A stretch of 32,000 nucleotides of DNA from assembly GCF_008065095.1 (NCBI RefSeq), contig NZ_CP042911.1, positions 3,960,001-3,992,000 on the forward strand, in the 5' to 3' direction. The position numbers and the translations under genes were made by a program. Below the pieces are notes generated by a model. The model searched no databases and was not told the DNA's origin. It saw only the letters and a program-made list of their open reading frames with translations. The stretch is from Gemmata obscuriglobus. GTDB lineage: Bacteria; Planctomycetota; Planctomycetia; Gemmatales; Gemmataceae. Positions 5,818 to 16,911 of this stretch are shown one piece after another (position 1 is the first letter of the stretch; every line of letters starts with the position of its first letter).

Positions 5818-8800
5818 TTAGGGTGCCGGGGCCGGCGCCCCGGGCGGGTTCGGCCCGCCCGCCCCGGGTGGGGTTTGCGCGTCGGCAGGCGGCTTCGCCG
5901 TTTCGCCCCCGACGAGCCAGCGCTCGATCAGGTAGTAGAACACCGGCGTTAACGCGAGCCCGAAGAAGGTCACCCCGAGCATCCCGCTGAACACCGCGAT
6001 GCCGAGCGTGCGTCGCATCTCGGCTCCGGCACCTTCGGCCAGCACGAGCGGCACCACGCCAAGAATGAACGCGAAGCTGGTCATCACGATCGGCCGCAGC
6101 CGGAGCCGTACCGACTCCAGGATCGCCTCACGCAGCCCCTTACCCTCGTGCCGCTGCTGTTCAGCGAACTCCACGATCAGAATGGCGTTCTTGCACGCCA
6201 GCCCGACCAGCACCACGAACCCGATCTGCGTGAAGATGTTGATCTCCGGTGCCACCGCCGGCACCAGCAGCGCGAAGCCGTAAATCCCGCCGATCGCCGA
6301 CAGGATGCACATCGGCACCACGAGGATGATGGCGAACGGGAGGGACCAACTGTTGTACAACCCGGCCAGCACCAGGTACACGAGTACCACCGCGCCCATG
6401 AACGCGTAAATCGCGGTGCTCCCTTCCTGGTTCTGAAGGAACGAGATGTCGGTCCACTCGTACCCCGTCTGGCTGGACATCGAACGCTCCGCGGCCTCGG
6501 TCACCAGTTGGATGCCGGTGCCGGTACTCGTACCGGGGGCCAGGTTCCCGTTCACCGCCGCGGCCGGGAACGTGTTGTACCGCTGGATCACCACCGGCCC
6601 GGTGACGTCCTGGATCTTCGCGACCGACCCCAGCGGCACCATCTCGCCGCGGTCGTTCCGGACGCGGAGGTTGCGGATGGTGTCGGCGCTCATGCGGTAC
6701 GGCGCGTCCGCCTGGGCGGTCACCTGCCAGTTGCGCCCGAACCGGTTGAAGTCGTTCACATACGTCCCGCCGAGGTACACCTGGAGCGTGGCGAACACGT
6801 CGGCCAGCGGGACGCCCATCTGCCGGCACCGCACGCGGTCCACGTCGACGAACAGTTGTGGCACGTTGGCCCGGTACACGGTGAACGACGCCCCCAGCGC
6901 CGGGTTCTGGTTGATCTCGCGGATGAGCGCGTTAGTCTCGCGCTGGAGCCCCTCCGGCCCGAGGTCGCCGCGGTCTTCCACCATGATCCGGTATCCGCCA
7001 GCGGAGCCCAGGCCCCGCACCGGGGGCGGCGGTAGGATCAGTACCTGCGCGTCCTGTACCTCGCGGAGGATCTTCGCGTTCAGGTCGCGCAGGATCATGA
7101 ATCCGTTACGCGAGATGTCCCCCTTGCGCGCCTCGAACGGCTCCAGGATCACGAACATGGTGCCAAAGTTCGACCCGGTCGCTCCTAACACGAACGACTG
7201 GCCCGTCACCGTGAGCGTGTTCGACACCCCGGGCTGCGCGCGAACGATGTCGTCGATCCGCTGCATCACCGCGCGGCTGCGCTGCGCCGACGCTGCGTCC
7301 GGGAGCTGCACCGACACGAGCAAGTAGCCTTGGTCCTGCGGCGGGATGTAGCCCGTGGGAGTGCGCGCGAACCCGGTGTACGTCAGCGCGAGCAGCCCGG
7401 CGTAAATGGCCAAGACGATCAGGGCACCGCGCAAAAGCTGGCGGACGGCCCAGGTGTAGCCGTGTGCGGTCTTGTCGAACCCGCGGTTGAATAGCGCGTA
7501 GAACCGCCGCAGGAGTGCGTTCGCCCGCGGCCCGACGAGCCAGCCCACGACCGCACCGGGGATCATGTACAGGGCGTGCGCCCCGATCCACTGCGCCCAC
7601 AGCTTCACGCTGGTCGGGTTGAGGGCCAGCGCGGGCGTCTGCGGCGGCACCAGCCGGAGCGGGCCGAACAGCGCGACTAGCAGCCTGTAGCCCGCGTAAC
7701 CGATCAGAAGCGCCCAACCCCACCGCGGGAGCGTTTCCGTCGTCTCGTGCGCGGTCTTCTCGCGCCCGCGGAAGATCGCCGCCGCCCGCGACGGGGTCAG
7801 TGTCATCGCGTTCAGTGCCGAAATCATCATCGCCACAGAGATCGTCAGCGCGAACTGGCGGAAGAACTGCCCCGTCACCCCGCCCAGGAACGCGCTCGGG
7901 AGGAACACGCTGCTGAGCACCAGCGTGATCGCAATGATCGGCCCCGTGATTTCGGACATCGCCTTCAATGTGGCGTCGCGGGCGTTCAGACCCTGCGCGA
8001 TCCACCGCTCCACGTTCTCCAGCACCACGATGGCGTCGTCCACCACAATGCCGATGGCCAGCACCAGCCCGAACAGGGTGAGGTTGTTGAGCGAGAACCC
8101 GAACACGTACATCACCGCCAGCGTGCCCACCAGCGACACCGGCACGTCGATCATCGGCAGGATCATCGCTCGCCAGTCCTGCAGGAACAGCAGCACCACG
8201 ATCGCGACCAGCAGCGTGGCGTCGAAGAGCGTGTTGTACACCTCTTCCACCGACTGCTCGATGAACGGGGTGGTGTCGTACCGCACCGCCACCTCGACGC
8301 CCGGCGGGAACCGCTTCTTAAGCTGCTCGATCTTGGCCTTCACCCGGTCGGCCACGTCGAGCGCGTTGGCGCCGGGCAGCGCGAAGATCGCGAGCCCTAC
8401 CGAAGCCTTCCCGTCCAGGGTGTTCGTGATGTCCTGGGTGCGGGCCGTTAGCTCCACGCGGGCCACGTCCCCCAGGCGCACGATGGGCCGCAGCAGGGCG
8501 TCGGACGGCGGCGCGGGCGTCGGACTGGTCGGGACGGCGGACATACCACCGTTAGTCGCACTGGCGGAGTCCCCGCCGGTTGAGGCGGAGCCGGCCTGCG
8601 ACGAGGCGGTGGCCCCGGACTTGACCACGATGTTGCGGAACTGTTCGACCGTTTCGAGCCGCCCGAGCGCGTTGAGCGTGTACTGGAACGCCACCCCGGG
8701 CGTTGCCGGCTCGGCCCCCACCCGACCGGCCGCGACCTGCACGTTCTGCTCGCGCATCGCGTTCACCACGTCCGACGCCGAGAGGCTGTTGGCGGCGAGC

Positions 8801-9387
8801 TTGTCCGGGTCCAGCCAGGCCTTCATGCTGTAGTCCTGCTGCCCGAACACGGTCACGTCGCCGACGCCCTCAATGCGCGCGATCTCGTCGCGCACCTGCA
8901 CCGTGGCGAAGTTCGACAGGTACAACTGGTCCCGCGAGTCGTCCGGCGAGAAGAGGTTGGCGATGAGCAGGATGTCGGGGGTGCGTTTGCGCACCACGAC
9001 GCCCTGGCGCTGCACCTCTTCGGGCAGCAGCGGCGTGGCCTGCTGGACGCGGTTCTGCACGAGCACCTGAGCCATGTTCAGGTCGGTGCCGAGGGCGAAC
9101 GTGACGGTGAGCGAGTAGGAACCGTCGTTCCCGGAGTTGGAAGACATGTACAGCATGCCCTCGACCCCGTTCACCTGCAACTCAATCGGGGCGGCGACGC
9201 TGTTGGACACCACCTGCGCGTTCGCGCCGGGGTACGTACACGACACCGTGACGGTGGGCGGCGCGACCTCGGGGTACTGCGCGATCGGCAGCCGAAACAG
9301 TGCCGCGAGCCCGAACAACAGAATGATGAGCGATATGACCCAGGCGAGCACCGGCCGGTCGATGAACACGCGCGCGAACATGGGCAC
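5818..9387 (-). CDS. RND (HAE1/AcrB-like) efflux transporter permease, about 1187-1189 aa
   Basis: N-terminus MFARVFIDRPVLAWVISLIILLFGLAALFRLPIAQYPEVAPPTVTV is the canonical AcrB-family opening. Also present: GIVVDDAIVVLENV (TM4 proton-relay Asp pair) and a duplicated porter/TM architecture. The listed start is GTG 9387; ATG 9381 (MFARVF...) is equally plausible. Confidence 0.95.
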   Translation of the reverse strand: MPMFARVFIDRPVLAWVISLIILLFGLAALFRLPIAQYPEVAPPTVTVSCTYPGANAQVVSNSVAAPIELQVNGVEGMLYMSSNSGNDGSYSLTVTFALGTDLNMAQVLVQNRVQQATPLLPEEVQRQGVVVRKRTPDILLIANLFSPDDSRDQLYLSNFATVQVRDEIARIEGVGDVTVFGQQDYSMKAWLDPDKLAANSLSASDVVNAMREQNVQVAAGRVGAEPATPGVAFQYTLNALGRLETVEQFRNIVVKSGATASSQAGSASTGGDSASATNGGMSAVPTSPTPAPPSDALLRPIVRLGDVARVELTARTQDITNTLDGKASVGLAIFALPGANALDVADRVKAKIEQLKKRFPPGVEVAVRYDTTPFIEQSVEEVYNTLFDATLLVAIVVLLFLQDWRAMILPMIDVPVSLVGTLAVMYVFGFSLNNLTLFGLVLAIGIVVDDAIVVLENVERWIAQGLNARDATLKAMSEITGPIIAITLVLSSVFLPSAFLGGVTGQFFRQFALTISVAMMISALNAMTLTPSRAAAIFRGREKTAHETTETLPRWGWALLIGYAGYRLLVALFGPLRLVPPQTPALALNPTSVKLWAQWIGAHALYMIPGAVVGWLVGPRANALLRRFYALFNRGFDKTAHGYTWAVRQLLRGALIVLAIYAGLLALTYTGFARTPTGYIPPQDQGYLLVSVQLPDAASAQRSRAVMQRIDDIVRAQPGVSNTLTVTGQSFVLGATGSNFGTMFVILEPFEARKGDISRNGFMILRDLNAKILREVQDAQVLILPPPPVRGLGSAGGYRIMVEDRGDLGPEGLQRETNALIREINQNPALGASFTVYRANVPQLFVDVDRVRCRQMGVPLADVFATLQVYLGGTYVNDFNRFGRNWQVTAQADAPYRMSADTIRNLRVRNDRGEMVPLGSVAKIQDVTGPVVIQRYNTFPAAAVNGNLAPGTSTGTGIQLVTEAAERSMSSQTGYEWTDISFLQNQEGSTAIYAFMGAVVLVYLVLAGLYNSWSLPFAIILVVPMCILSAIGGIYGFALLVPAVAPEINIFTQIGFVVLVGLACKNAILIVEFAEQQRHEGKGLREAILESVRLRLRPIVMTSFAFILGVVPLVLAEGAGAEMRRTLGIAVFSGMLGVTFFGLALTPVFYYLIERWLVGGETAKPPADAQTPPGAGGPNPPGAPAPAP

Positions 9388-9537: not shown

Positions 9538-10779
9538 TCACTTCGACTTGGGCGGATCGGTCGCGCTCCCGCTCGCCCCGGGCGGCGCCCCTGGTCCCGC
9601 GTTGCCGGTTGGCGCACTGGGCTGGGCCGCCGGATCTGGTCGCGGCTTGATCTCACCGGGTTGGGGATCGATTTCCATATCCGGCTGAATGCGTGCCAGG
9701 CCGTTGATGATGACCCGATCCGCCGGCGCCAGCCCTTCGACGACCCGCAACCCCATCGACTGCGGCCCGAGCTTGACGTGCTTCACCGCGACGCGGTTGT
9801 TCGGGCCGACCACGTACACCACCCGCTCCGCCTGGTCGCTCTGAACCGCGTCGTCGGGGATCAGCGTCGCTTCCGTCGCGGTTTTCAGCGGGATGCGGCC
9901 GCGCACGAACAGACCGGGACGGAGCAGCCGCGGCGCCGGGTTCGGGAACGTGCCTCGAATCTGAAGGGTGCCGGTCGAAGGGCTCAGCTCGGAGCTGGCG
10001 AAGTCGATCGTGCCCTTGTGCGGGTAGCCGGTTTCGTCGCGCAACTGGATCTCGACCGGCGGGCCGGTGCCCGGTGCCGATGACACCCGCCCCTCGCGCT
10101 GCGCCCGCCGGAGGTACGCGAGCACCGTTTGCTCATCAACCGTGAAGTACGCGTAGGTCGGGTCTACAGTGGTCACCCGGGTCAGCACGGTGCCCGATCC
10201 GGTGCCGCCAGTGACCACGTTCCCCTCGTTCACGAAGATGCGGTCCACGCGCCCGTCGAAGGGGGCAACGATGGTGGTGTACGAGAGGTTCAGCTTCGCC
10301 TGTTCGACGTCCTTTTGGCTCTTCTCGACGTTGGCCTTCGACACGAGCAGGTTGGCCCGCGCCTGGTCGTACTCTTCCTTGCTGGCGGCTCCGGCCATAA
10401 GCGTCTTGTTGACCCGCGCCTCGTTCGCGGCCGCCTGCTCCCGCTGCGCCTCCGCGCTTTTGACCCCGGCTTCGGCCAGGCCGAGTGCGACCTGGAACGG
10501 CTCGGGGTCTATCTCGATCAGCCTCGCTCCGGCCTTGACCTCGGCCCCTTCCTGGAACAGCACCTTCTGAACGTATCCGTTCACCCGCGCACGAATGTCG
10601 GCCGTTTTGACCGCCGCCAGCGTGCCGGTCAGTTCCGTGAACTCGGTCACGGGACGCACGAGCGGGGCGGCGACGGTAACCTTGGGCGGCCCGACATCCT
10701 TGGACTGTGCGGGCGGCTTCTTGTTACACCCCAGCGCCGACAACCCGACAACGAGTGCGAACAGGGGCAACAGACGCAT
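9538..10779 (-). CDS. RND efflux periplasmic adaptor (membrane fusion protein), lipoprotein, 413 aa
   Basis: Signal peptide and lipobox MRLLPLFALVVGLSALGC. MFP features: a coiled-coil hairpin (AEAGVKSAEAQREQAAANEARV...) and YTTIVAPFDGRVDRIFVNEGNVV. Start moved from 10923 to ATG 10779, where the signal peptide begins. The gene lies directly upstream of the RND permease on the same strand. Confidence 0.9.
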   Translation of the reverse strand: MRLLPLFALVVGLSALGCNKKPPAQSKDVGPPKVTVAAPLVRPVTEFTELTGTLAAVKTADIRARVNGYVQKVLFQEGAEVKAGARLIEIDPEPFQVALGLAEAGVKSAEAQREQAAANEARVNKTLMAGAASKEEYDQARANLLVSKANVEKSQKDVEQAKLNLSYTTIVAPFDGRVDRIFVNEGNVVTGGTGSGTVLTRVTTVDPTYAYFTVDEQTVLAYLRRAQREGRVSSAPGTGPPVEIQLRDETGYPHKGTIDFASSELSPSTGTLQIRGTFPNPAPRLLRPGLFVRGRIPLKTATEATLIPDDAVQSDQAERVVYVVGPNNRVAVKHVKLGPQSMGLRVVEGLAPADRVIINGLARIQPDMEIDPQPGEIKPRPDPAAQPSAPTGNAGPGAPPGASGSATDPPKSK

Positions 10780-11147
10780 CTGCGTACTCCAATAACCACC
10801 CGGCTCCGGCGGTACGCCGTCCGACAGTAGCAGCGCGCGTGCCGAAAACCGAAACGGGTAACTCACGACGGGAATACCAGACGCGCCCACGAACTGAGCG
10901 TGATGGCGCGGCGTCGCGGGCATGGGGCCGGTCGCATCCGGCCACCCGCACCAATCAGCGGCAACAACGTTCGCGCGCGTGCCCGTGGCTTAATGATCCG
11001 ATTTCTGGCCGAATTTTGACTTCGCCTCAGTTCGATCGGCCGACTGGACTTCTGGCGGGGAGTGACTTACGGTTCAACCGGGAATTTTCATGGAACGCGC
11101 AGCCGGGACGGTCCGTCCGCCGACCGGGTTACAGGGCACCCCAAGCT

Positions 11148-14100
11148 ATGAACTGGCTCCGCGAGCCCGACGGCGAACCGCTGCCCGGATACCGGCTCCT
11201 CGAACCCATCGGCACCGGCGGGTTCGGCGAGGTGTGGAAGTGCATCGCCCCGGGGGGCATCCAGAAGGCAATCAAGTTCGTATACGGCAACCTCCACGCG
11301 CTCGACGGCGACGACGCCCGCGCGGTCCAGGAGATGAAGGCGCTCGAGCGCGTCAAGCAGGTGCGCCACCCGTTCGTGTGCCAGATCGACCGCATTGAGG
11401 ACGTCGGCGGCGAGCTGGTCATCGTGATGGAGCTGGCCGACCGCAACCTGCACGAGTGCCTGGTCGAGTACCAGGAGGCGGGCCGGCCCGGCGTCCCGCG
11501 CGACATCCTGCTCGGCTTCCTCGACGACGCGGCCGTCGGTCTGGACCACCTGATCGAAAAGCACAACCTCCAGCACCTGGACGTGAAGCCGCGCAACCTG
11601 TTCATGGTTGCGGACCGCGTGAAGGTGGCCGACTTCGGGCTCGTGAAGCAGCTCGAGCGGTCCAGCTCGTCGGGGCTGATGGGCGGCGTCACCCCCATTT
11701 ACGCCGCGCCGGAAACGTTCCAGAACAAGATCAGCAAGCACTCGGACCAGTACAGCCTCGCCATCGTGTACGTCGAGCTGCTGACCGGCAAGCGGCCGTT
11801 TCCGGGCAAGAACATCCGGCAGCTCGCGCTCCAGCACATGAGCGAACCGCCGGACCTGTCGATGCTGCCCGACGCGGACCGCCCGGTGGTCGCCCGCGCG
11901 CTGTCGAAGAACCCGGACGAGCGGTGGCCCAGTTGCACCGCGTTCGTCCGCGCGCTGGGCACCCGCGACCCGAACGGGAGCGGGTCCGGCAGCGGCGTCC
12001 GCGAGCCCGGGGCGTGGGCGAAGGCCGGCCGCACGGTCCACGACGTGGACCTCACCCCGCCGGCGGCGCCGCGGGGCGGGGGCGGGCGGGCGGCCGTACT
12101 CGACCGGCCCGCGCCCCAGTCGGCCGGGGCCGAGCCGGACTCGGATATCGACGAGGAGCACCTGCTCGGCGCCACCGCGCCGCAACGGGAGGTGGGGGTG
12201 CTGCGCCCCACCATCCTCATCGGGGTGGGCAGCTTCGGGCGGCGGGCGCTGCAGGAACTCCGGTGCCGGCTCACCGACCGCGTCGGCGACGTGGTCCAGG
12301 TGCCGTGCTTCCGGTTCCTGTACGTCGACTGCGACCCCGACGCGGTGACGAAGGCGGTCAGCGCCCCGCCGGACGTGGCGCTGGGCACCGACGAGGTGTT
12401 CCCGGTGCCGCTCCAGCCGGTCACTCAGTACCGGCGGCGCCAGCTCGAACAGATCCTGGACTGGCTGCCGCGGGAGAAGCTGTACGCGATCCCGCGGAGC
12501 CTCCACGCGGGCGGCTCGCGCGCCCTCGGCCGGCTCGCGTTCTGCGACAACTACCTCCGCTTCGTCACCCGCCTGCGGCGCGAGCTGCAGATCGCCACGC
12601 ACCCCGAGTCGCTGTCCCAGTCGTCCGACCAGACCGGGCTGCAGGTGCGGGACAACACGCCGCAGGTGTACGTGTTCGCCAGCGCCGCCGGCGGGTCCGG
12701 GGGCATGCTCATCGACCTGGGGTACGCGGTGCGCCGGGTGCTTGCCCGGGTCACCCCGGCCGAGACCCAGGTGACCGCGTTCGTGTACGCGTCCGCGCCC
12801 AACGACCCCAGCATGTCGGACCAGGAGCTGGCGAACCTGTACGCCGCCGTCACCGAGCTGAACCACTACGCCGACCCGGACGTGCAGTTCGTCGCGCACT
12901 ACGGCGGCCCGGAGGGGCCGAAGGTCGAGAGCCAGGGGCTCCCGTTCACCGCCACCTACCTGATGCCCATGCCGGAGCGCACGGCCGGCGCCTTCCGGGA
13001 CTGTCTGTCGCACCTCGCCGGGTACGTGTCGCACGACATGACCACCCCGCTGGGGCCGGCGCTGCAGCAGATGCGCACCCGGCCGGTCGGGTTCGACCGC
13101 AGCCCGTTCCGCTCGTTCGGCACCTACGGGGTCTGGTTCCCGCGCGGGCTGCTGCTCCGCGCCGCCGCGCAGAAGATCTGCGTGGGCCTGCTCCGGGAGT
13201 GGAAATCCGACGCCAACCCGCTCGACCCGACCTCCGTTCAGCACACGGTGAACCGTGCGACCGCCGACCCGCGGCTGAAGCCCGACGCGGTCCGCGGGCA
13301 GCTCGAGCAGGAGGCCGTGCGCGGCCAGGAGGGCGGCCCGGGCGACCAGATCGAGCGCTGGCTCAACGGGCTGGAGGCCCAGCTCAACTCGACCGGGCGG
13401 CGGCCGGACGCCGCGGCGTGGTCGCGCGCCGTGTGGGAGCAGGCCCGCGACCTCATCGGGCTGCGCCCGCCCGGCGAGCAGGACAGCTCTGTCCGCAGGA
13501 GCCGCACGTCGAAGGTGTGGGACGAGGCGGTGAAGCGCGTCGCCGAGATGTGGGGCAACGAGTTCGAGGCGGTGGTGCGGCCGCTGGAGGAGCTGCCCGG
13601 GCGCCGGCTCGGCGCGATCGGCTCGGCGCTGCGGCGGCTGGCGGTGGTGTGCGGCGAGTGGGCCACCGCCGCGGACGCCCGCACCCAGCAGCTCGAGGTG
13701 AAGTCCCGCCAAGTGCGGGCCGACGTGCAGGCCGCGCTCGATGTGTGCCAGGCGGGCAGCGGCACGTTCAGCTTCTTCGGCGGCCGGTCTGGTCGCAGCA
13801 TGCGGCACTTCCTGGACCAGCTCCGGGCGTTCACCCGAATCCGGCTCCAGGAGGACCTGGCGGACGCGACCGCCAAGTTCTACCGCGCGCTGCGCACGAA
13901 GGTGGACGAGCGGGTCAGTGAGCTGGGGTACTGCCGCACCCGGCTGGACGTGCTGCTCGCCACCCTGGAGTGCCCGATCGCGAACCTGCCTGTGTCCTCG
14001 GACACCCCCGTGGCGGCGATGTCCGAGGAAGCACTTCAGCAGACGCTGCATCCCACGAACACACTCAACGTGGTGCTGCCGTCGGGCGAGACGCATCTCG

Positions 14101-14681
14101 ACCGGTCCGCGCGGCGGGTTGTCAAGTCGATGAAGCCGGACGACGTGCTGCGGCTGGAGATCGCGCTCCAGAAGCTGGTGCTGGAGCCGCGCGGCGGGCT
14201 GACCGCGCTGTGCCTACTGAACGCCGACATGAGCCGCACCCTCGTGGCCCCCATCGTCGAGCAGACGACGGCGTTCCTGAGCGAGTTGCTGCCCGTCACG
14301 GACGTGACGGAGGTGGAAGTGTCCACGTCGCGGGCGCGGAAGGCGGACCTGCCGACGCGGATCCGCGACTACTATGCCCGCGCCGTCCCGCCGTGCGGCT
14401 CGGACGCGGGGGCGCAGTCGTTCGTGCTCGTTCCCGACAGCGAGTCCGGAAAGGCGTTCGCGGGGCTGGTCAAGAAGGCCGTCCCGAGCGCCCTGATGAT
14501 TCCGGTGAGCGGGTCCGCGACGGACCTGATGTTCTGCCGCGAGCGCACCAACCTGCTGCCGACGGAACTGGCCGAGTTGCTGGCCGTGTGCCAGCCGGCC
14601 TATTACCAGTCGCTGGCCGCACCACAAACCGCCCCGCACGCCCGCTTCGATGTGACCGAATGGCTGCCATTAAGCGAGTAG
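11148..14681 (+). CDS. Hanks-type Ser/Thr protein kinase fused to a tubulin/FtsZ-like (Tubulin_2-like) module and a long helical C-terminal region, 1177 aa
   Basis: Kinase motifs GTGGFGEVW, AIKFV, HLDVKPRN, ADFG and YAAPE lie in aa 15-270. Residues about 352-620 read ILIGVGSFGRRAL...FLYVDCD...HAGGSRALGRLAF...VFASAAGGSGGMLIDLG. Start set at ATG 11148 (MNWLREPDGEPLPGYRLLEPIG...). The ORF-track start at 10707 would overlap the divergent adaptor gene. Confidence 0.9.
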   Translation: MNWLREPDGEPLPGYRLLEPIGTGGFGEVWKCIAPGGIQKAIKFVYGNLHALDGDDARAVQEMKALERVKQVRHPFVCQIDRIEDVGGELVIVMELADRNLHECLVEYQEAGRPGVPRDILLGFLDDAAVGLDHLIEKHNLQHLDVKPRNLFMVADRVKVADFGLVKQLERSSSSGLMGGVTPIYAAPETFQNKISKHSDQYSLAIVYVELLTGKRPFPGKNIRQLALQHMSEPPDLSMLPDADRPVVARALSKNPDERWPSCTAFVRALGTRDPNGSGSGSGVREPGAWAKAGRTVHDVDLTPPAAPRGGGGRAAVLDRPAPQSAGAEPDSDIDEEHLLGATAPQREVGVLRPTILIGVGSFGRRALQELRCRLTDRVGDVVQVPCFRFLYVDCDPDAVTKAVSAPPDVALGTDEVFPVPLQPVTQYRRRQLEQILDWLPREKLYAIPRSLHAGGSRALGRLAFCDNYLRFVTRLRRELQIATHPESLSQSSDQTGLQVRDNTPQVYVFASAAGGSGGMLIDLGYAVRRVLARVTPAETQVTAFVYASAPNDPSMSDQELANLYAAVTELNHYADPDVQFVAHYGGPEGPKVESQGLPFTATYLMPMPERTAGAFRDCLSHLAGYVSHDMTTPLGPALQQMRTRPVGFDRSPFRSFGTYGVWFPRGLLLRAAAQKICVGLLREWKSDANPLDPTSVQHTVNRATADPRLKPDAVRGQLEQEAVRGQEGGPGDQIERWLNGLEAQLNSTGRRPDAAAWSRAVWEQARDLIGLRPPGEQDSSVRRSRTSKVWDEAVKRVAEMWGNEFEAVVRPLEELPGRRLGAIGSALRRLAVVCGEWATAADARTQQLEVKSRQVRADVQAALDVCQAGSGTFSFFGGRSGRSMRHFLDQLRAFTRIRLQEDLADATAKFYRALRTKVDERVSELGYCRTRLDVLLATLECPIANLPVSSDTPVAAMSEEALQQTLHPTNTLNVVLPSGETHLDRSARRVVKSMKPDDVLRLEIALQKLVLEPRGGLTALCLLNADMSRTLVAPIVEQTTAFLSELLPVTDVTEVEVSTSRARKADLPTRIRDYYARAVPPCGSDAGAQSFVLVPDSESGKAFAGLVKKAVPSALMIPVSGSATDLMFCRERTNLLPTELAELLAVCQPAYYQSLAAPQTAPHARFDVTEWLPLSE

Positions 14682-14829: not shown

Positions 14830-16911
14830 TCACGCTCCGCCGAACGCGAGGCCCGGTTTGGGCGGAACCTCTGGCGTGATGGTCGGTTCCGGCTGCGGCA
14901 CCGGCGCGGCGGCGACCGGTTTCGGCGTTTCCGGACGCAGGTCCGCCACGGACACGCCGTTCATCAGCTTCTCCACCTCCGCCCGGTCGATCTCCTCGTG
15001 CAGCAGCAGGGCGTCGGCCAGCAGGTCGAGCTTGTCGCGGTGCGTCTTCACCAGTTCCGTCGCCCGGTTCTCGGCGTCGCTGAGGATGCGCTGGATCTCC
15101 TCGTCGATCAGCCGCGCGGTGCCCTCGCTGTACGCCCGGGACTCCGTGATCTCCTTGCCCAGGAAGACGTGCTCCTCGCCCTGCTGGTGGTACACCGGGC
15201 CGACCCGGTCGCTCATGCCGAACTGGGTGACCATCACCCGGGCGACGCGGGTCGCCTGCTTGAGGTCGCCCACCGCCCCCGAGAGCGGCTCGCCGAGCAC
15301 CAGCTTATCCGCGGCCCGCCCGCCCATCGACATCACCAGCATCGCGCTCAGCTCGCTCTGCGAGTAGTCCACCCGCTCCTCGTCCTGCTGGAACATCGTC
15401 ACCCCGCCGGCGCGGCCGCGCGGGATGATGGACACCCGGTCCAGCGCCTGCATCCCGGACGGCATCAGGTATGCGCACAGGGCGTGCCCGGCCTCGTGGT
15501 ACGCGGTGCGCCGCTTCTCCTTATCCGAGTACGGCTCCTCGCGCTGGCTGCCGAGCCGGACGCGGTCCGCCGCGCGGTCGAAGTCGATCTGCTCGATCTT
15601 GTTGCGGCCCGCCCGCACAGCGAGCAGCGCCGCCTCGTTGCACAGGTTCTTCAGTTCGGCTCCGCTCATGCCCACCATGCTGCGGGCGATCCGCTCCAGG
15701 TCCGCCTTGTCCGACAGCGGCTTGTTCCGGGTGTGGACCTTCAGGATCTCGAGCCGGCCCTTCCACGACTGCCGGTCCACGGTGATGTGCCGGTCGAACC
15801 GGCCCGGGCGCAGGAGCGCGGCGTCGAGCACGTCCGGGCGGTTGGTCGCGGCCATCACGATGACCGTTTCCGACGGCTGGAACCCGTCCATCTCGCTCAG
15901 GATCTGGTTGAGCGTCTGCTCCCGCTCGTCGGACCCGCCCCCGTACCCGGCGCCGCGCATCCGGCCCACGGCGTCGATCTCGTCAATGAAGATGACGCAC
16001 GGCGAGTGCTCCTTCGCGGTGCGGAACATGTCCCGCACGCGCGACGCGCCCACCCCGACGAACATCTGGATGAACTCGCTGCCGCTGATGGCGAAGAACG
16101 GCACGTTGGCCTCGCCCGCGACGGCCTTGGCGAGCAGCGTCTTGCCGGTGCCCGGGGGGCCGACCAGCAGCACCCCCTTCGGCACGGTGGCGCCGACGCG
16201 GGTGAACTTCGCAGGGTCCTTGAGGTAGTCGACCATCTCGGTCAGCTCGCGCTTGGCCGACTCCATGCCGGCCACGTCCTCGAACGTGACCCGGCCCTTG
16301 CCCTTTTCGTACCGCTTCGCGGGGCTGCGGATGTAGTTGTTGATGAACCCGCCGCCCATCGGGTCGCGGAGCCGCGGCAGGAAGAACACCACGAACACCA
16401 TGACCAGGCCGAAGACGATGAGGAGCTGCAGCAGGAGCGGCCCGAGCCACGGGGTCGGCTCGTCGCGGCGGTTGATGACCACCCGCTCCGGTTCGGCCTG
16501 GCTGGGGGCGGCCTTCTTCAGTTCCTCGCGGTACTTCTGGTCCGCCTTCTCGATCTCGGCGGTGAGGGGGCGCTGGTCGTTCGAGTGCGGCAGGTTGACC
16601 GCGAACCGCCCGGTCTTGCCCAGCTCGAGCTTCTTGGCGGCGGCGGAATCCGGGTCCCGGACCTCGCCCTCGGCCCGGTCCGGCCCGAGCAGCGTGACCG
16701 ACTTCAGTTGCCCGGAGTCCATCAGGTCGCGGAACTTCGAGTAGTCGATCTCGCGCGCGTTGTTTTTGAACGCGATGAACGCGAACGCGATCACGCCGAG
16801 CACGACCAGTGCGATCCACCCGCCGGGCAAGAGCGGGTTAGCACGCCTCGTGCCGGGCTGCGACCCGCCGGGGCCGCTGCTGTTCGGGGTCGGGTCGTTC
16901 GGCTCGGCCAT
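14830..16911 (-). CDS. ftsH: ATP-dependent zinc metalloprotease FtsH, 693 aa
   Basis: N-terminal TM segments; Walker [19 protein letters not shown]; Walker [12 protein letters not shown]; second region of homology [20 protein letters not shown]; zinc site HEAGHAL. Confidence 0.97.

Follow-up and report, generated by a model that had tools for sequence, protein, structure and literature searches.

Some Hanks-type bacterial Ser/Thr kinases phosphorylate FtsZ in trans, mycobacterial PknA being an example, and in ROCO proteins such as LRRK2 a kinase is fused to a Roc GTPase and a COR dimerisation module, with the G domain and dimerisation gating the kinase. Makarova and Koonin (2010) described the FtsZl1 family (PF13809). 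In its members, an FtsZ-like N-terminal domain carrying the T1 and T4 motifs leads into a long helical or coiled-coil stretch and then an alpha-helical C-terminal part, and a planctomycete subgroup has an N-terminal protein kinase (PK) domain as well. According to these authors, vWA, PK and GTPase operon partners are frequent in the family, although not obligatory. The kinase fusion was reported anew in 2023 (PMC9871819) and 2024 (PMC11032199), and the 2024 survey classed the tubulin-like kinases as cytoplasmic Ser/Thr kinases and reported the Planctomycetota to lack FtsZ. Kaur et al. (2020) suggested a role in biological conflict for tubulin-domain proteins that have coiled-coil C-termini and are encoded beside DO-GTPase, GAP1 and vWA genes (PMC7159879). 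In the literature searched, no experimental work on a kinase-FtsZl1 fusion was found, in agreement with a first-pass annotation of the present locus that knew of no characterised example.

The gene analysed here lies in a 32,000-nucleotide stretch of Gemmata obscuriglobus DNA (the window) and codes for a member of the planctomycete kinase subgroup of FtsZl1. The first-pass annotation had recognised a Ser/Thr kinase and a tubulin/FtsZ-like domain in a single protein and had considered the case of a Gemmata-like host, from a group reported to lack FtsZ. Both points were borne out, the former by matches to Pfam PF00069 and PF13809 and a tubulin/CetZ-like predicted fold, the latter by the source of the DNA and the reported absence of FtsZ from its phylum. 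The novelty that it implied did not hold, since the fusion appears in the 2010, 2023 and 2024 reports cited above and NCBI already uses the name 'Tubulin-like protein' for an identical entry; the kinase-tubulin-like fusion is thus already known.

As in tubulin, FtsZ, CetZ and TubZ, the tubulin-like domain has a predicted Rossmann-like nucleotide-binding fold, and its S1-T1 and S4-T4 motifs are alignable with theirs. It differs from canonical tubulin/FtsZ in lacking a PF00091 match and a predicted second domain of the FtsZ_C/Tubulin_C type, in its T4 motif (GGSGG instead of GGGTG(S/T)G), in large inserts between T1 and T4, and in being joined to a kinase and a helical C-terminal region of ~500 residues. 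Compared with FtsZl1 proteins in general, the T4 loop of the orthologue clade is shorter by one residue, and the fusion lacks the vWA, GTPase and OmpA operon partners described for most members. With PknA-type kinases it shares a eukaryotic-like kinase with all catalytic motifs and a functional link to a tubulin-superfamily protein, but here both reside in one polypeptide, the kinase is soluble, without transmembrane segment or PASTA sensor, and non-RD (HLD), and the tubulin-like partner is FtsZl1 instead of FtsZ. The likeness to ROCO/LRRK2 is an analogy in design logic only: one chain combines a nucleotide-binding switch domain with a module for oligomerisation and a protein kinase. The two are not homologous; the G domain of the fusion has a tubulin/FtsZ and not a Ras-like fold, and the order of the domains differs. 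Finally, the fusion of a tubulin domain to a C-terminal coiled-coil/alpha-helical region recalls the DO-GTPase/GAP1-N2 conflict systems (PMC7159879), but DO-GTPase, GAP1, vWA and FNIII are absent from the fusion locus, and a kinase fusion is foreign to those systems.

The fusion gene, its relatives and its neighbours

The open frame around the fusion gene spans positions 10707-14681 on the forward strand, and translation from the ATG at 11148 yields 1177 residues. This start is supported by the N-terminus MNWLREPD, which is nearly invariant among the fusion orthologues. The protein is 100% identical to the NCBI entry 'Tubulin-like protein [Gemmata obscuriglobus]', and third-codon-position G+C is 0.91 over the open frame, as in neighbouring real genes. 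The motifs quoted in the first-pass annotation are all in place, in the kinase part (GTGGFGEV, AIKFV with K43, HLDVKPRN with D145, DFG at 162-164 and APE at 187-189) as well as in the tubulin-like part (RPTILIGVGSFGRRALQEL, FLYVDCD, HAGGSRALGRLAF, VYVFASAAGGSGGMLIDLG and NLYAAVTELNHY), and nucleotides 12684-12704 indeed encode AAGGSGG, residues 513-519. The Pkinase and Tubulin_2 matches are far beyond chance. The features are listed in Table 1.

Table 1. Features of the kinase-FtsZl1 fusion gene and its product (positions in the window).
Feature	Residues	Position	Strand	Basis
Complete CDS, kinase-FtsZl1 fusion	1177 aa + stop	11148..14681	+	ORF, translation
Hanks-type Ser/Thr kinase domain, non-RD (HLD catalytic loop)	15-270	11190..11957	+	Pfam PF00069
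Hypervariable Gly/Ser/Pro/Ala/acidic linker	271-345	11958..12182	+	Orthologue alignment
Tubulin_2/FtsZl1 domain, predicted Rossmann-like tubulin/FtsZ-type nucleotide-binding fold	356-679	12213..13184	+	Pfam PF13809, AF2, Foldseek
T1-like loop LIGVGSFGRR	357-366	12216..12245	+	hhalign, profile alignment
HAGGSRALGR, candidate T3-loop equivalent	453-462	12504..12533	+	Conservation, model position
T4 signature loop AAGGSGGM	513-520	12684..12707	+	Broad-family alignment, motif counts
TTPLGPALQQMR, candidate H7-T7-H8-like element	632-643	13041..13076	+	Model secondary structure
Long antiparallel helical stalk (predicted)	~786-941	13503..13970	+	AF2 model of residues 680-1177
C-terminal globular alpha/beta domain (predicted)	~983-1156	14094..14615	+	AF2 model
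Conserved C-terminal tail motif APHARFDVTEWLP	1162-1174	14631..14669	+	Relatives' alignment

The first-pass annotation had left room for an assembly or frameshift artefact that joined two genes. This did not materialise, and we reject it as next to impossible: the frame is uninterrupted with uniform third-position G+C, the identical 1177-aa protein is on record on a 9.03-Mb contig, and 104 full-length colinear orthologues from independent assemblies (NCBI, JGI, ENA and Logan) keep the same domain order, while distant relatives also show the kinase-Tubulin_2 architecture. These orthologues measure 1150-1260 aa, mostly ~1170-1190, and those from Gemmataceae are 63-92% identical, colinear and of constant length. 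A survey of the distribution showed the fusion to be very common in Planctomycetota, with relatives in 2387 clusters (50% identity) at E<=1e-3 and in 528 at E<=1e-30, and Pkinase and Tubulin_2 were both present in 41/41 sampled full-length relatives. Among the relatives found here, the PK-FtsZl1 family was seen in Planctomycetota only. Judged from sequence, the fusion is ancient and selected.

Its neighbours in the window encode a beta-CASP RNase, an RND pump and adaptor, FtsH, Tex, PIG-L and MlaD. In the window no operon partner was found for the fusion gene, nor any membrane-targeting or division gene in an operon with it, and genes for a vWA protein, a P-loop GTPase, a separate PK and an OmpA-like protein are absent from the window and from the orthologue loci. 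Upstream operon partners are found in sister clades that are 30-38% identical, and not in the G. obscuriglobus orthologue group: an FHA(-EAL) gene ends just upstream on the same strand at 7 sister-clade loci, and a classic AAA+ ATPase gene is located there in the same orientation at 12. The best PDB matches of this ATPase include spastin and Vps4-type enzymes; they span only short Walker-motif stretches and are not specific to severing enzymes. In a Gemmatales paralogue clade, scpA lies directly downstream of the family gene. In at least two genomes the family is represented by two genes, and a tandem pair lies on one contig, with differing contexts. PADLOC kinase models matched the generic kinase domain only, and there was no PADLOC match over the tubulin-like or C-terminal parts.

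Domains of the fusion protein

As shown by sequence comparison and model prediction, the fusion consists of a non-RD Hanks kinase, a disordered linker, the FtsZl1 domain, a helical stalk, an alpha/beta domain and a tail peptide, in this order. The kinase matches Pkinase over residues 15-260 (E 4.5e-31, 108.7 bits versus a cut-off of 31.7). The glycine-rich loop (G22, G24, G27), K43 and E62 are present, as are D145, K147, N150 and the DFG and APE motifs, and all catalytic residues are invariant across the 104 orthologues, so that the kinase looks intact, as was proposed in the first-pass annotation. Its activation loop contains S172-S175 and T182. The Arg of HRD is replaced by Leu in HLDVKPRN, and since the family-specific HLD catalytic loop is kept in 71/75 distant full-length relatives, the sequences indicate a conserved non-RD type. 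Activation-loop phosphorylation is usually dispensable for such kinases. The linker that follows has a mean identity of 0.36-0.52 among orthologues and is unalignable over the broad family, except that the Gemmatales clade shares a short T.(E/H)D..L motif.

The match to Tubulin_2 (E 7.2e-33, 114.7 bits versus a cut-off of 27) covers profile positions 1-352 of 356. An AF2 model of residues 340-700 (pLDDT 77.5, pTM 0.78) was compared with the PDB using Foldseek, and the best 44 matches were all tubulin, CetZ or gamma-tubulin (E 5e-6 to 4e-4, probability 1.0, query-length normalised TM-scores 0.31-0.48), with best E-values of 5e-6 for tubulin and 4.5e-5 for CetZ. The predicted fold is thus tubulin/CetZ-like, as anticipated in the first-pass annotation. 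The PF00091 profile, which it had also suggested, gave no match in the fusion protein at E<=1, and matched just 4/41 relatives at E<=0.001 (best 1.2e-5). An FtsZ/tubulin C-terminal domain is not predicted: Pfam gave no FtsZ_C/Tubulin_C match, and the AF2 model contains no second beta-sheet domain.

The T1-like loop was aligned by hhalign to the VIGVGGGGGN segment of E. coli FtsZ and by profile alignment to LIGVGQAGGK of CetZ. The segment HAGGSRALGR, which we take to be a candidate equivalent of the FtsZ T3 loop (GAGANPEVGR), sits just ahead of a long helix in the AF2 model (residues 458-484), and over the broad family R458, G461 and R462 never vary and G456 hardly does. In the fusion protein and its orthologue clade the T4 loop reads GG(S/A)GG, one residue less than the GGTG(S/G)GM of the broad family, and some near relatives have still more degraded loops, e.g., TDGV-SG and SSGS-GG; profile alignment placed AAGGSGGM on CetZ GGGSGSG / GGTGS. 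Around TTPLGPALQQMR, the AF2 model has a long helix (H274-293) followed by a short one (H296-304, model residue numbers), which makes this element a candidate T7 equivalent. Position 640 is Gln in G. obscuriglobus, D or E in 60/76 broad relatives, and E, D or Q in 97, 3 and 2 of the 104 orthologues, respectively. Eleven residues of the domain are invariant in these orthologues (G359, G361 and G364 of the T1-like loop, R458, G461, R462, the T4 glycines G515 and G519, D523, N563 and E570), and most are retained in the broad family. Because both the kinase catalytic residues and the T1, T3 and T4 glycines are invariant, the two active sites are under purifying selection. In the monomer model, pLDDT falls below 50 in segments 442-452 and 658-668, which are among the most conserved.

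The ~550 C-terminal residues are predicted by AF2 to be mainly helical, as the first-pass annotation had assumed. In the model of residues 680-1177, the stalk helices (model residues 107-136, 141-193 and 202-262) are 30-61 residues long with pLDDT mostly above 90, and are followed by the globular alpha/beta domain. No significant PDB fold match was obtained for the stalk, the best being to ClyA-type helical toxins (E 0.017). The alpha/beta domain is conserved throughout the family and gave no Pfam match and no PDB sequence or fold match. In the low-pLDDT tail, relatives down to 25-30% identity always keep R1166 and D1168, and nearly always H1164 and W1172.

Proposed assembly-coupled signalling and alternative readings

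Our preferred reading, held tentatively and with a probability of roughly 0.45, is that this soluble PK-FtsZl1 family member acts as an assembly-coupled signalling kinase. Signs of assembly are the predicted long helical stalk, the conserved low-pLDDT segments, which would be compatible with interface loops, and the tail peptide, whose conserved, apparently disordered sequence recalls a docking peptide. Signalling is hinted at by the FHA(-EAL) and AAA+ genes upstream in sister clades and the cytoplasmic kinase class (PMC11032199); that these partners belong to sister clades and not to the orthologue group speaks against the reading.

In line with the first-pass annotation, which envisaged a phospho-regulated cytoskeletal or membrane-remodelling element, the protein might instead form GTP-dependent cytomotive filaments that serve FtsZ-less division or budding, or the remodelling of Gemmata internal membranes, with the kinase tuning polymer dynamics by autophosphorylation. 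The tubulin/CetZ-like predicted fold, the conserved T1, T3 and T4 glycines and a modelled long helix-loop-short helix with a mostly acidic conserved residue, resembling H7-T7-H8, are in line with this, as is the lack of FtsZ in Planctomycetota (PMC11032199), and membrane remodelling was proposed for FtsZl1 by Makarova and Koonin. The same authors, however, found no T6-H7-T7 and noted that the family might not form filaments, a FtsZ/tubulin C-terminal domain is not predicted, T4 is shortened in the clade and residue 640 is Gln in G. obscuriglobus. The genomic context points both ways: scpA downstream in the paralogue clade and the spastin/Vps4-like matches of the upstream AAA+ ATPase fit a filament, but the latter are confined to unspecific Walker-motif stretches, no membrane-targeting or division genes share an operon with the fusion gene, and paired family genes in differing contexts argue against a single core division role. 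We therefore consider filament formation unlikely. In its most far-reaching version, the protein would truly polymerise in a nucleotide-dependent manner and take over FtsZ-type functions in the FtsZ-less Planctomycetota, e.g., at the bud neck or in the remodelling of Gemmata internal membranes, with its own kinase gating assembly and clade-specific partners (AAA+ disassembly ATPase, FHA-EAL c-di-GMP phosphodiesterase, ScpA) providing turnover, signalling and chromosome coupling; this is highly improbable.

It is also doubtful that the orthologue clade has a degenerate, non-hydrolysing pseudo-GTPase scaffold, whose sole use to a constitutively active non-RD kinase would be that of a ligand sensor or of a platform for structure or oligomerisation. 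The clade-wide one-residue T4 deletion, the more degraded loops of near relatives, the E-to-Q exchange at 640 in G. obscuriglobus, the missing PF00091 match and the usual independence of non-RD kinases from activation-loop phosphorylation would suit such a scaffold, but the 11 invariant residues would be difficult to account for if the domain had no ligand-binding pocket. The protein might also be a component of an NTP-dependent conflict system, in immunity or programmed cell death. FtsZl1-type tubulin proteins of Firmicutes and Actinobacteria do occupy such neighbourhoods (PMC7159879), the family has vWA, PK and GTPase operon partners (Makarova and Koonin), and PADLOC kinase models match the kinase domain. 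However, these models recognise the generic kinase domain alone, the window holds housekeeping neighbours and no vWA, DO-GTPase, GAP1, FNIII or effector gene, and the strong colinear conservation in Gemmataceae contrasts with the variability expected of conflict systems, which makes this role very unlikely.

In the assembly-coupled kinase reading, the stalk and nucleotide binding by the tubulin-like domain would jointly drive self-association, although the T4 loop that is one residue short in the clade and the Gln at 640 in G. obscuriglobus could mean that the nucleotide cycle has changed or been lost. Self-association would bring the kinase domains together and couple kinase output to the assembly state, and phosphorylation of the fusion itself or of partners could then feed back on assembly or send a signal onward. 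In the sister clades, the product of the gene directly upstream, FHA-EAL protein or classic AAA+ ATPase, would probably deal with either the phospho-signal or assembly, whereas the G. obscuriglobus gene is solitary, so that its partners would have to be encoded elsewhere.

The fusion gene and its family

The first-pass annotation had described a complete Ser/Thr kinase joined to a distant tubulin/FtsZ-like module in one protein. All of the peptide motifs cited for this were found in the sequence, including AAGGSGG, and the two-domain arrangement was confirmed, far beyond chance, by strong Pfam matches: Pkinase at residues 15-260 (E 4.5e-31, 108.7 bits versus a cut-off of 31.7) and, without overlap, Tubulin_2 (PF13809, the FtsZl1 family) at residues 356-679 (E 7.2e-33, 114.7 bits versus a cut-off of 27), the latter spanning positions 1-352 of the 356 in the profile. 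The assigned ATG as the true start is supported by the N-terminus MNWLREPD, which is nearly invariant among orthologues. A search with the C-terminal 838 residues retrieved an identical 1177-aa protein on public record, "Tubulin-like protein [Gemmata obscuriglobus]", and listed relatives at 63-92% identity from NCBI, JGI, ENA and Logan assemblies, nearly all of them 1170-1190 aa long and carrying PF00069 and PF13809. Since the full-length orthologues (n=104), which come from several assembly sources, are all colinear in the alignment, the fusion is not an artefact of assembly or of a frameshift. The G+C content of the window reaches 0.74 at 12001-14000, inside the gene, versus 0.63-0.72 elsewhere, which probably reflects an Arg/Ala/Gly-rich composition.

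Within the protein, conservation is highest in the kinase, where the mean identity is 0.8-0.96 per 30-residue block of the orthologue alignment. The catalytic residues G22/G24/G27, K43, E62, D145/K147/N150, D162-F-G and A187-P-E are present, as are D200 and R259, and all are invariant in 104 of 104 orthologues. Because the catalytic loop reads HLD and not HRD, the kinase is of the non-RD type. HLD is kept in 71 of the 75 full-length relatives that are 25-52% identical over the non-kinase part, indicating a long joint evolution of the kinase and the tubulin-like module. The linker that follows (residues 271-345) is hypervariable; the idea of a Thr-Pro phospho-acceptor site for FHA binding within it was dropped, since the apparently invariant prolines are alignment artefacts. 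A defence-system annotation was likewise rejected because the PADLOC/NCBIfam matches (MAD6, PD-T4-6, PknB and others), far under their family cut-offs, are confined to the kinase domain.

With residues 340-1177 as the query and relatives clustered at 50% identity, an exhaustive HMMER search gave 2387 clusters at E<=1e-3 and 528 at E<=1e-30. Of the top 150 clusters, half (75) have a length of 1040 aa or more, and the match starts at about residue 320-400 in nearly all of these, which leaves room for an N-terminal kinase; both Pkinase and Tubulin_2 were present in 41 of 41 sampled relatives. The best 80 loci in a scan of species-representative genomes all belong to Planctomycetota. They come from Gemmatales (Gemmataceae and Fimbriiglobus, with Zavarzinella found among the cluster members), Pirellulales (Rhodopirellula, Rubripirellula, Stieleria, Mariniblastus, Bythopirellula and Thermoguttaceae) and Planctomycetales. 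Several genomes hold at least two paralogues, and one contig carries a tandem pair.

Structure of the tubulin-like and C-terminal regions

The AlphaFold2 model of residues 340-700, built from 103 sequences (pLDDT 77.5, pTM 0.78), has the strand-helix alternation of a Rossmann-like domain. When this model was compared with the PDB using Foldseek, 63 matches were obtained at E<=0.001, and the top 44 were without exception tubulins, gamma-tubulin or CetZ, with a best E of 5e-6, a probability of 1.0 and query-length-normalised TM-scores of 0.31-0.48 over about 300-380 aligned columns. Pfam, the model and the fold comparison thus agree with the proposed assignment of a kinase plus a distant tubulin/FtsZ-like domain. 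At the sequence level, likeness to the tubulin superfamily is limited to S1-T1-H1-S2 and S4-T4 (strands, loops and helices in FtsZ/tubulin nomenclature). The PF00091 profile, suggested as a further check, gave no Pfam match to the protein, and matches only 4 of 41 relatives. A PDB sequence search with residues 340-1177 returned nothing at E<=10, and a domain-only profile found in the PDB only marginal CetZ matches (E 0.12 and 0.44), at T1 and S4-T4. With hhalign, only S1-T1-H1-S2 could be aligned to E. coli FtsZ, at a probability of 10%; LIGVGSFGRR...FLYVDCDPDAV was placed opposite FtsZ VIGVGGGGGN...FFAVNTDAQAL.

The A-G-x-x-R-x-x-G-R motif noted earlier is present as HAGGSRALGR (residues 453-462), in which R458, G461 and R462 are invariant. 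It directly precedes the long third helix and is a candidate T3-loop equivalent of FtsZ GAGANPEVGR. Two other segments, REKLYAIPRSL and GTYGVWFPRGL, are among the most conserved of the domain and have a pLDDT below 50; judging from the model, they may be loops that are ordered only in a complex or oligomer.

In the AlphaFold2 model of residues 680-1177 (pLDDT 81), a stalk of three very long helices (approximately residues 786-941) is followed by a globular alpha/beta domain (approximately 983-1156) and a low-confidence tail. No significant PDB sequence or fold match was found for the C-terminal half; hits of its last 498 residues to ClyA-type toxins, Mx/dynamin stalks and SMC arms (best E 0.017, TM-score <0.2) were read as generic long-helix matches. 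The tail carries the motif (S/T)PH.R.D(I/V/L)..W, here APHARFDVTEW, which is found family-wide down to 25-30% identity, with R1166 and D1168 invariant across the family. This conserved tail may be a partner-docking peptide.

Genomic neighbourhoods

In the window the fusion gene is solitary, with RND genes on its divergent side and, some 150 nt past its stop codon, a convergent ftsH. The window also contains Tex, PIG-L, MlaD and a beta-CASP RNase, and it lacks genes for vWA, GTPase, FHA or phosphatase proteins. No conserved operon partner was found in the loci of its orthologues in other genomes; the convergent ftsH alone is kept, in 3-4 of them (including L002, L013 and L014), and is absent from that position in others, and the adjacency is probably plain synteny. 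Further downstream, two neighbouring unannotated ORFs, each some 810 aa long, are probably both real genes, given their third-position G+C of 0.94-0.96. Pfam gave no match to either at E<=0.001, and a paralogous relationship between them was rejected as they share no similarity.

More distant members of the family, assigned to clades by a rough NJ tree, have other neighbours. A same-strand gene ends just upstream in all 19 Pirellulales/Planctomycetales loci with enough flank. In 12 of these (L030-L034, L038, L042, L049, L061, L066, L071 and L076) it encodes a classic AAA+ ATPase, 440-490 aa in length, and ends approximately 10-330 nt, mostly <90 nt, before the family gene. This ATPase has a Walker A motif GPPGNGK(T/S) and a Walker B motif LLIDDFGRQ, and its best PDB profile matches are the AAA domains of spastin, VAT, Msp1 and Vps4, over short stretches only (E ~4e-6). 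In the other seven loci (L039, L040, L041, L043, L046, L048 and L059) the upstream gene encodes an FHA protein, fused to an EAL domain in six of them. FHA domains read phospho-threonine and EAL domains are c-di-GMP phosphodiesterases. Both partner types occur in Rhodopirellula MAGs of different assemblies (FHA-EAL in L040, AAA+ in L066). In a Gemmatales paralogue clade whose proteins share about 30-44% identity with that of the window, three loci have scpA, the gene for the SMC kleisin, immediately downstream in the same orientation; one of these loci has tandem family genes. Possible partners of the family therefore include phospho-threonine read-out, c-di-GMP turnover, ATP-driven remodelling and chromosome organisation. 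These clade-specific neighbours carry no evidence on the G. obscuriglobus orthologue itself.

Features of the fusion gene, its surroundings in the window, and family loci in other genomes (locus coordinates are local)
Feature	Position	Strand	Remark
RND pump	5818-9387	-	divergent side, beyond adaptor
RND adaptor	9538-10923	-	divergent from fusion gene
Fusion coding sequence	11148-14681	+	open frame 10707-14681; ATG at 11148 gives 1177 aa
REKLYAIPRSL	12471-12503		residues 442-452
AAGGSGG	12684-12704		
Q640 codon	13065-13067	+	short helix after long helix
GTYGVWFPRGL	13119-13151		residues 658-668
Tail motif	14631-14669		
ftsH	14830-16911	-	convergent
ORF, about 810 aa	21761-24193	-	adjacent to next
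ORF, about 810 aa	24231-26669	-	
Family gene, each AAA+ locus	about 7950-8000		
Tandem family genes, L022	2001-5609, 5691-9269		
scpA, L022	9490-10956	same as family gene	directly downstream
scpA, L036	11641-12378	same as family gene	directly downstream
scpA, L063	6979-7719	same as family gene	directly downstream

Readings of the protein and their meaning

Our preferred reading, at a probability of roughly 0.45, is that of a cytoplasmic signalling kinase coupled to assembly. Self-association would be governed by the stalk together with the putative nucleotide-binding tubulin-like domain, and its state would in turn determine kinase output. A cytomotive filament regulated by its fused kinase would also suit the tubulin-like fold, and is unlikely given several limits on a polymerising GTPase. 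The T4 loop has the canonical form L(A/G)GGTG(S/G)GM in the broad family and is xxGG(S/A)GGM, shorter by one residue, in the orthologue clade studied here, with still more degraded forms such as TDGV-SG and SSGS-GG in some near relatives. After the sixth strand of the modelled domain only helices follow, and an FtsZ_C/Tubulin_C-like sheet domain is predicted neither in the model of residues 340-700 nor in that of residues 680-1177. The predicted topology of a long helix (613-632), a loop and a short helix (635-643), with G636 and R643 nearly invariant, is reminiscent of H7-T7-H8. At position 640 within it, 60 of 76 distant relatives carry an acidic residue (D or E); of the 104 orthologues, 97 have E there, 3 have D and 2 have Q, the G. 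obscuriglobus protein being one with Q. If this position is a T7-type catalytic residue, the protein of G. obscuriglobus would be akin to a variant impaired in hydrolysis.

Such a variant would be compatible with a pseudo-GTPase scaffold, a reading that we consider improbable. The T1, T3 and T4 glycines, together with D523, N563 and E570, are invariant in the 104 orthologues, and this sequence conservation argues for a functional ligand pocket over complete degeneration. That the protein is part of a conflict system is very improbable. Coiled-coil-tailed tubulin-domain proteins adjoining DO-GTPase, GAP1 and vWA genes have been reinterpreted as such systems (Kaur et al. 2020, PMC7159879), whereas these neighbours are absent from the locus studied here. 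As to the preferred signalling kinase, a 2024 survey of Planctomycetota kinases found that exclusively cytoplasmic Ser/Thr kinases have the tubulin-like domain more often than any other partner domain (PMC11032199).

The novelty implied for the kinase/tubulin-like fusion did not hold, as the architecture was described as early as 2010 (Makarova & Koonin) and public databases already annotate it. The kinase-FtsZl1 fusion was reported again for Tubulin_2 proteins by Santana-Molina et al. 2023 (PMC9871819), and the G. massiliana genome paper has FtsZl1 among division-related proteins. No experimental study of FtsZl1 or of a kinase-fused member was found in the literature searched. What is added here is the shortened T4 loop, the conserved non-RD signature, the candidate T7-like position that is Gln in G. 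obscuriglobus, the conserved tail peptide, and the clade-specific neighbours (AAA+ ATPase, FHA-EAL and ScpA) of its relatives.

The protein touches on the questions of how Planctomycetota divide without FtsZ and what role the widespread FtsZl1 family plays. As a well conserved, single-gene representative of the kinase-fused branch, in a phylum for which genetic tools exist, it is a reasonable experimental starting point. The Gemmata protein is thus not a new finding but an entry point to an uncharacterised family in an FtsZ-less phylum.
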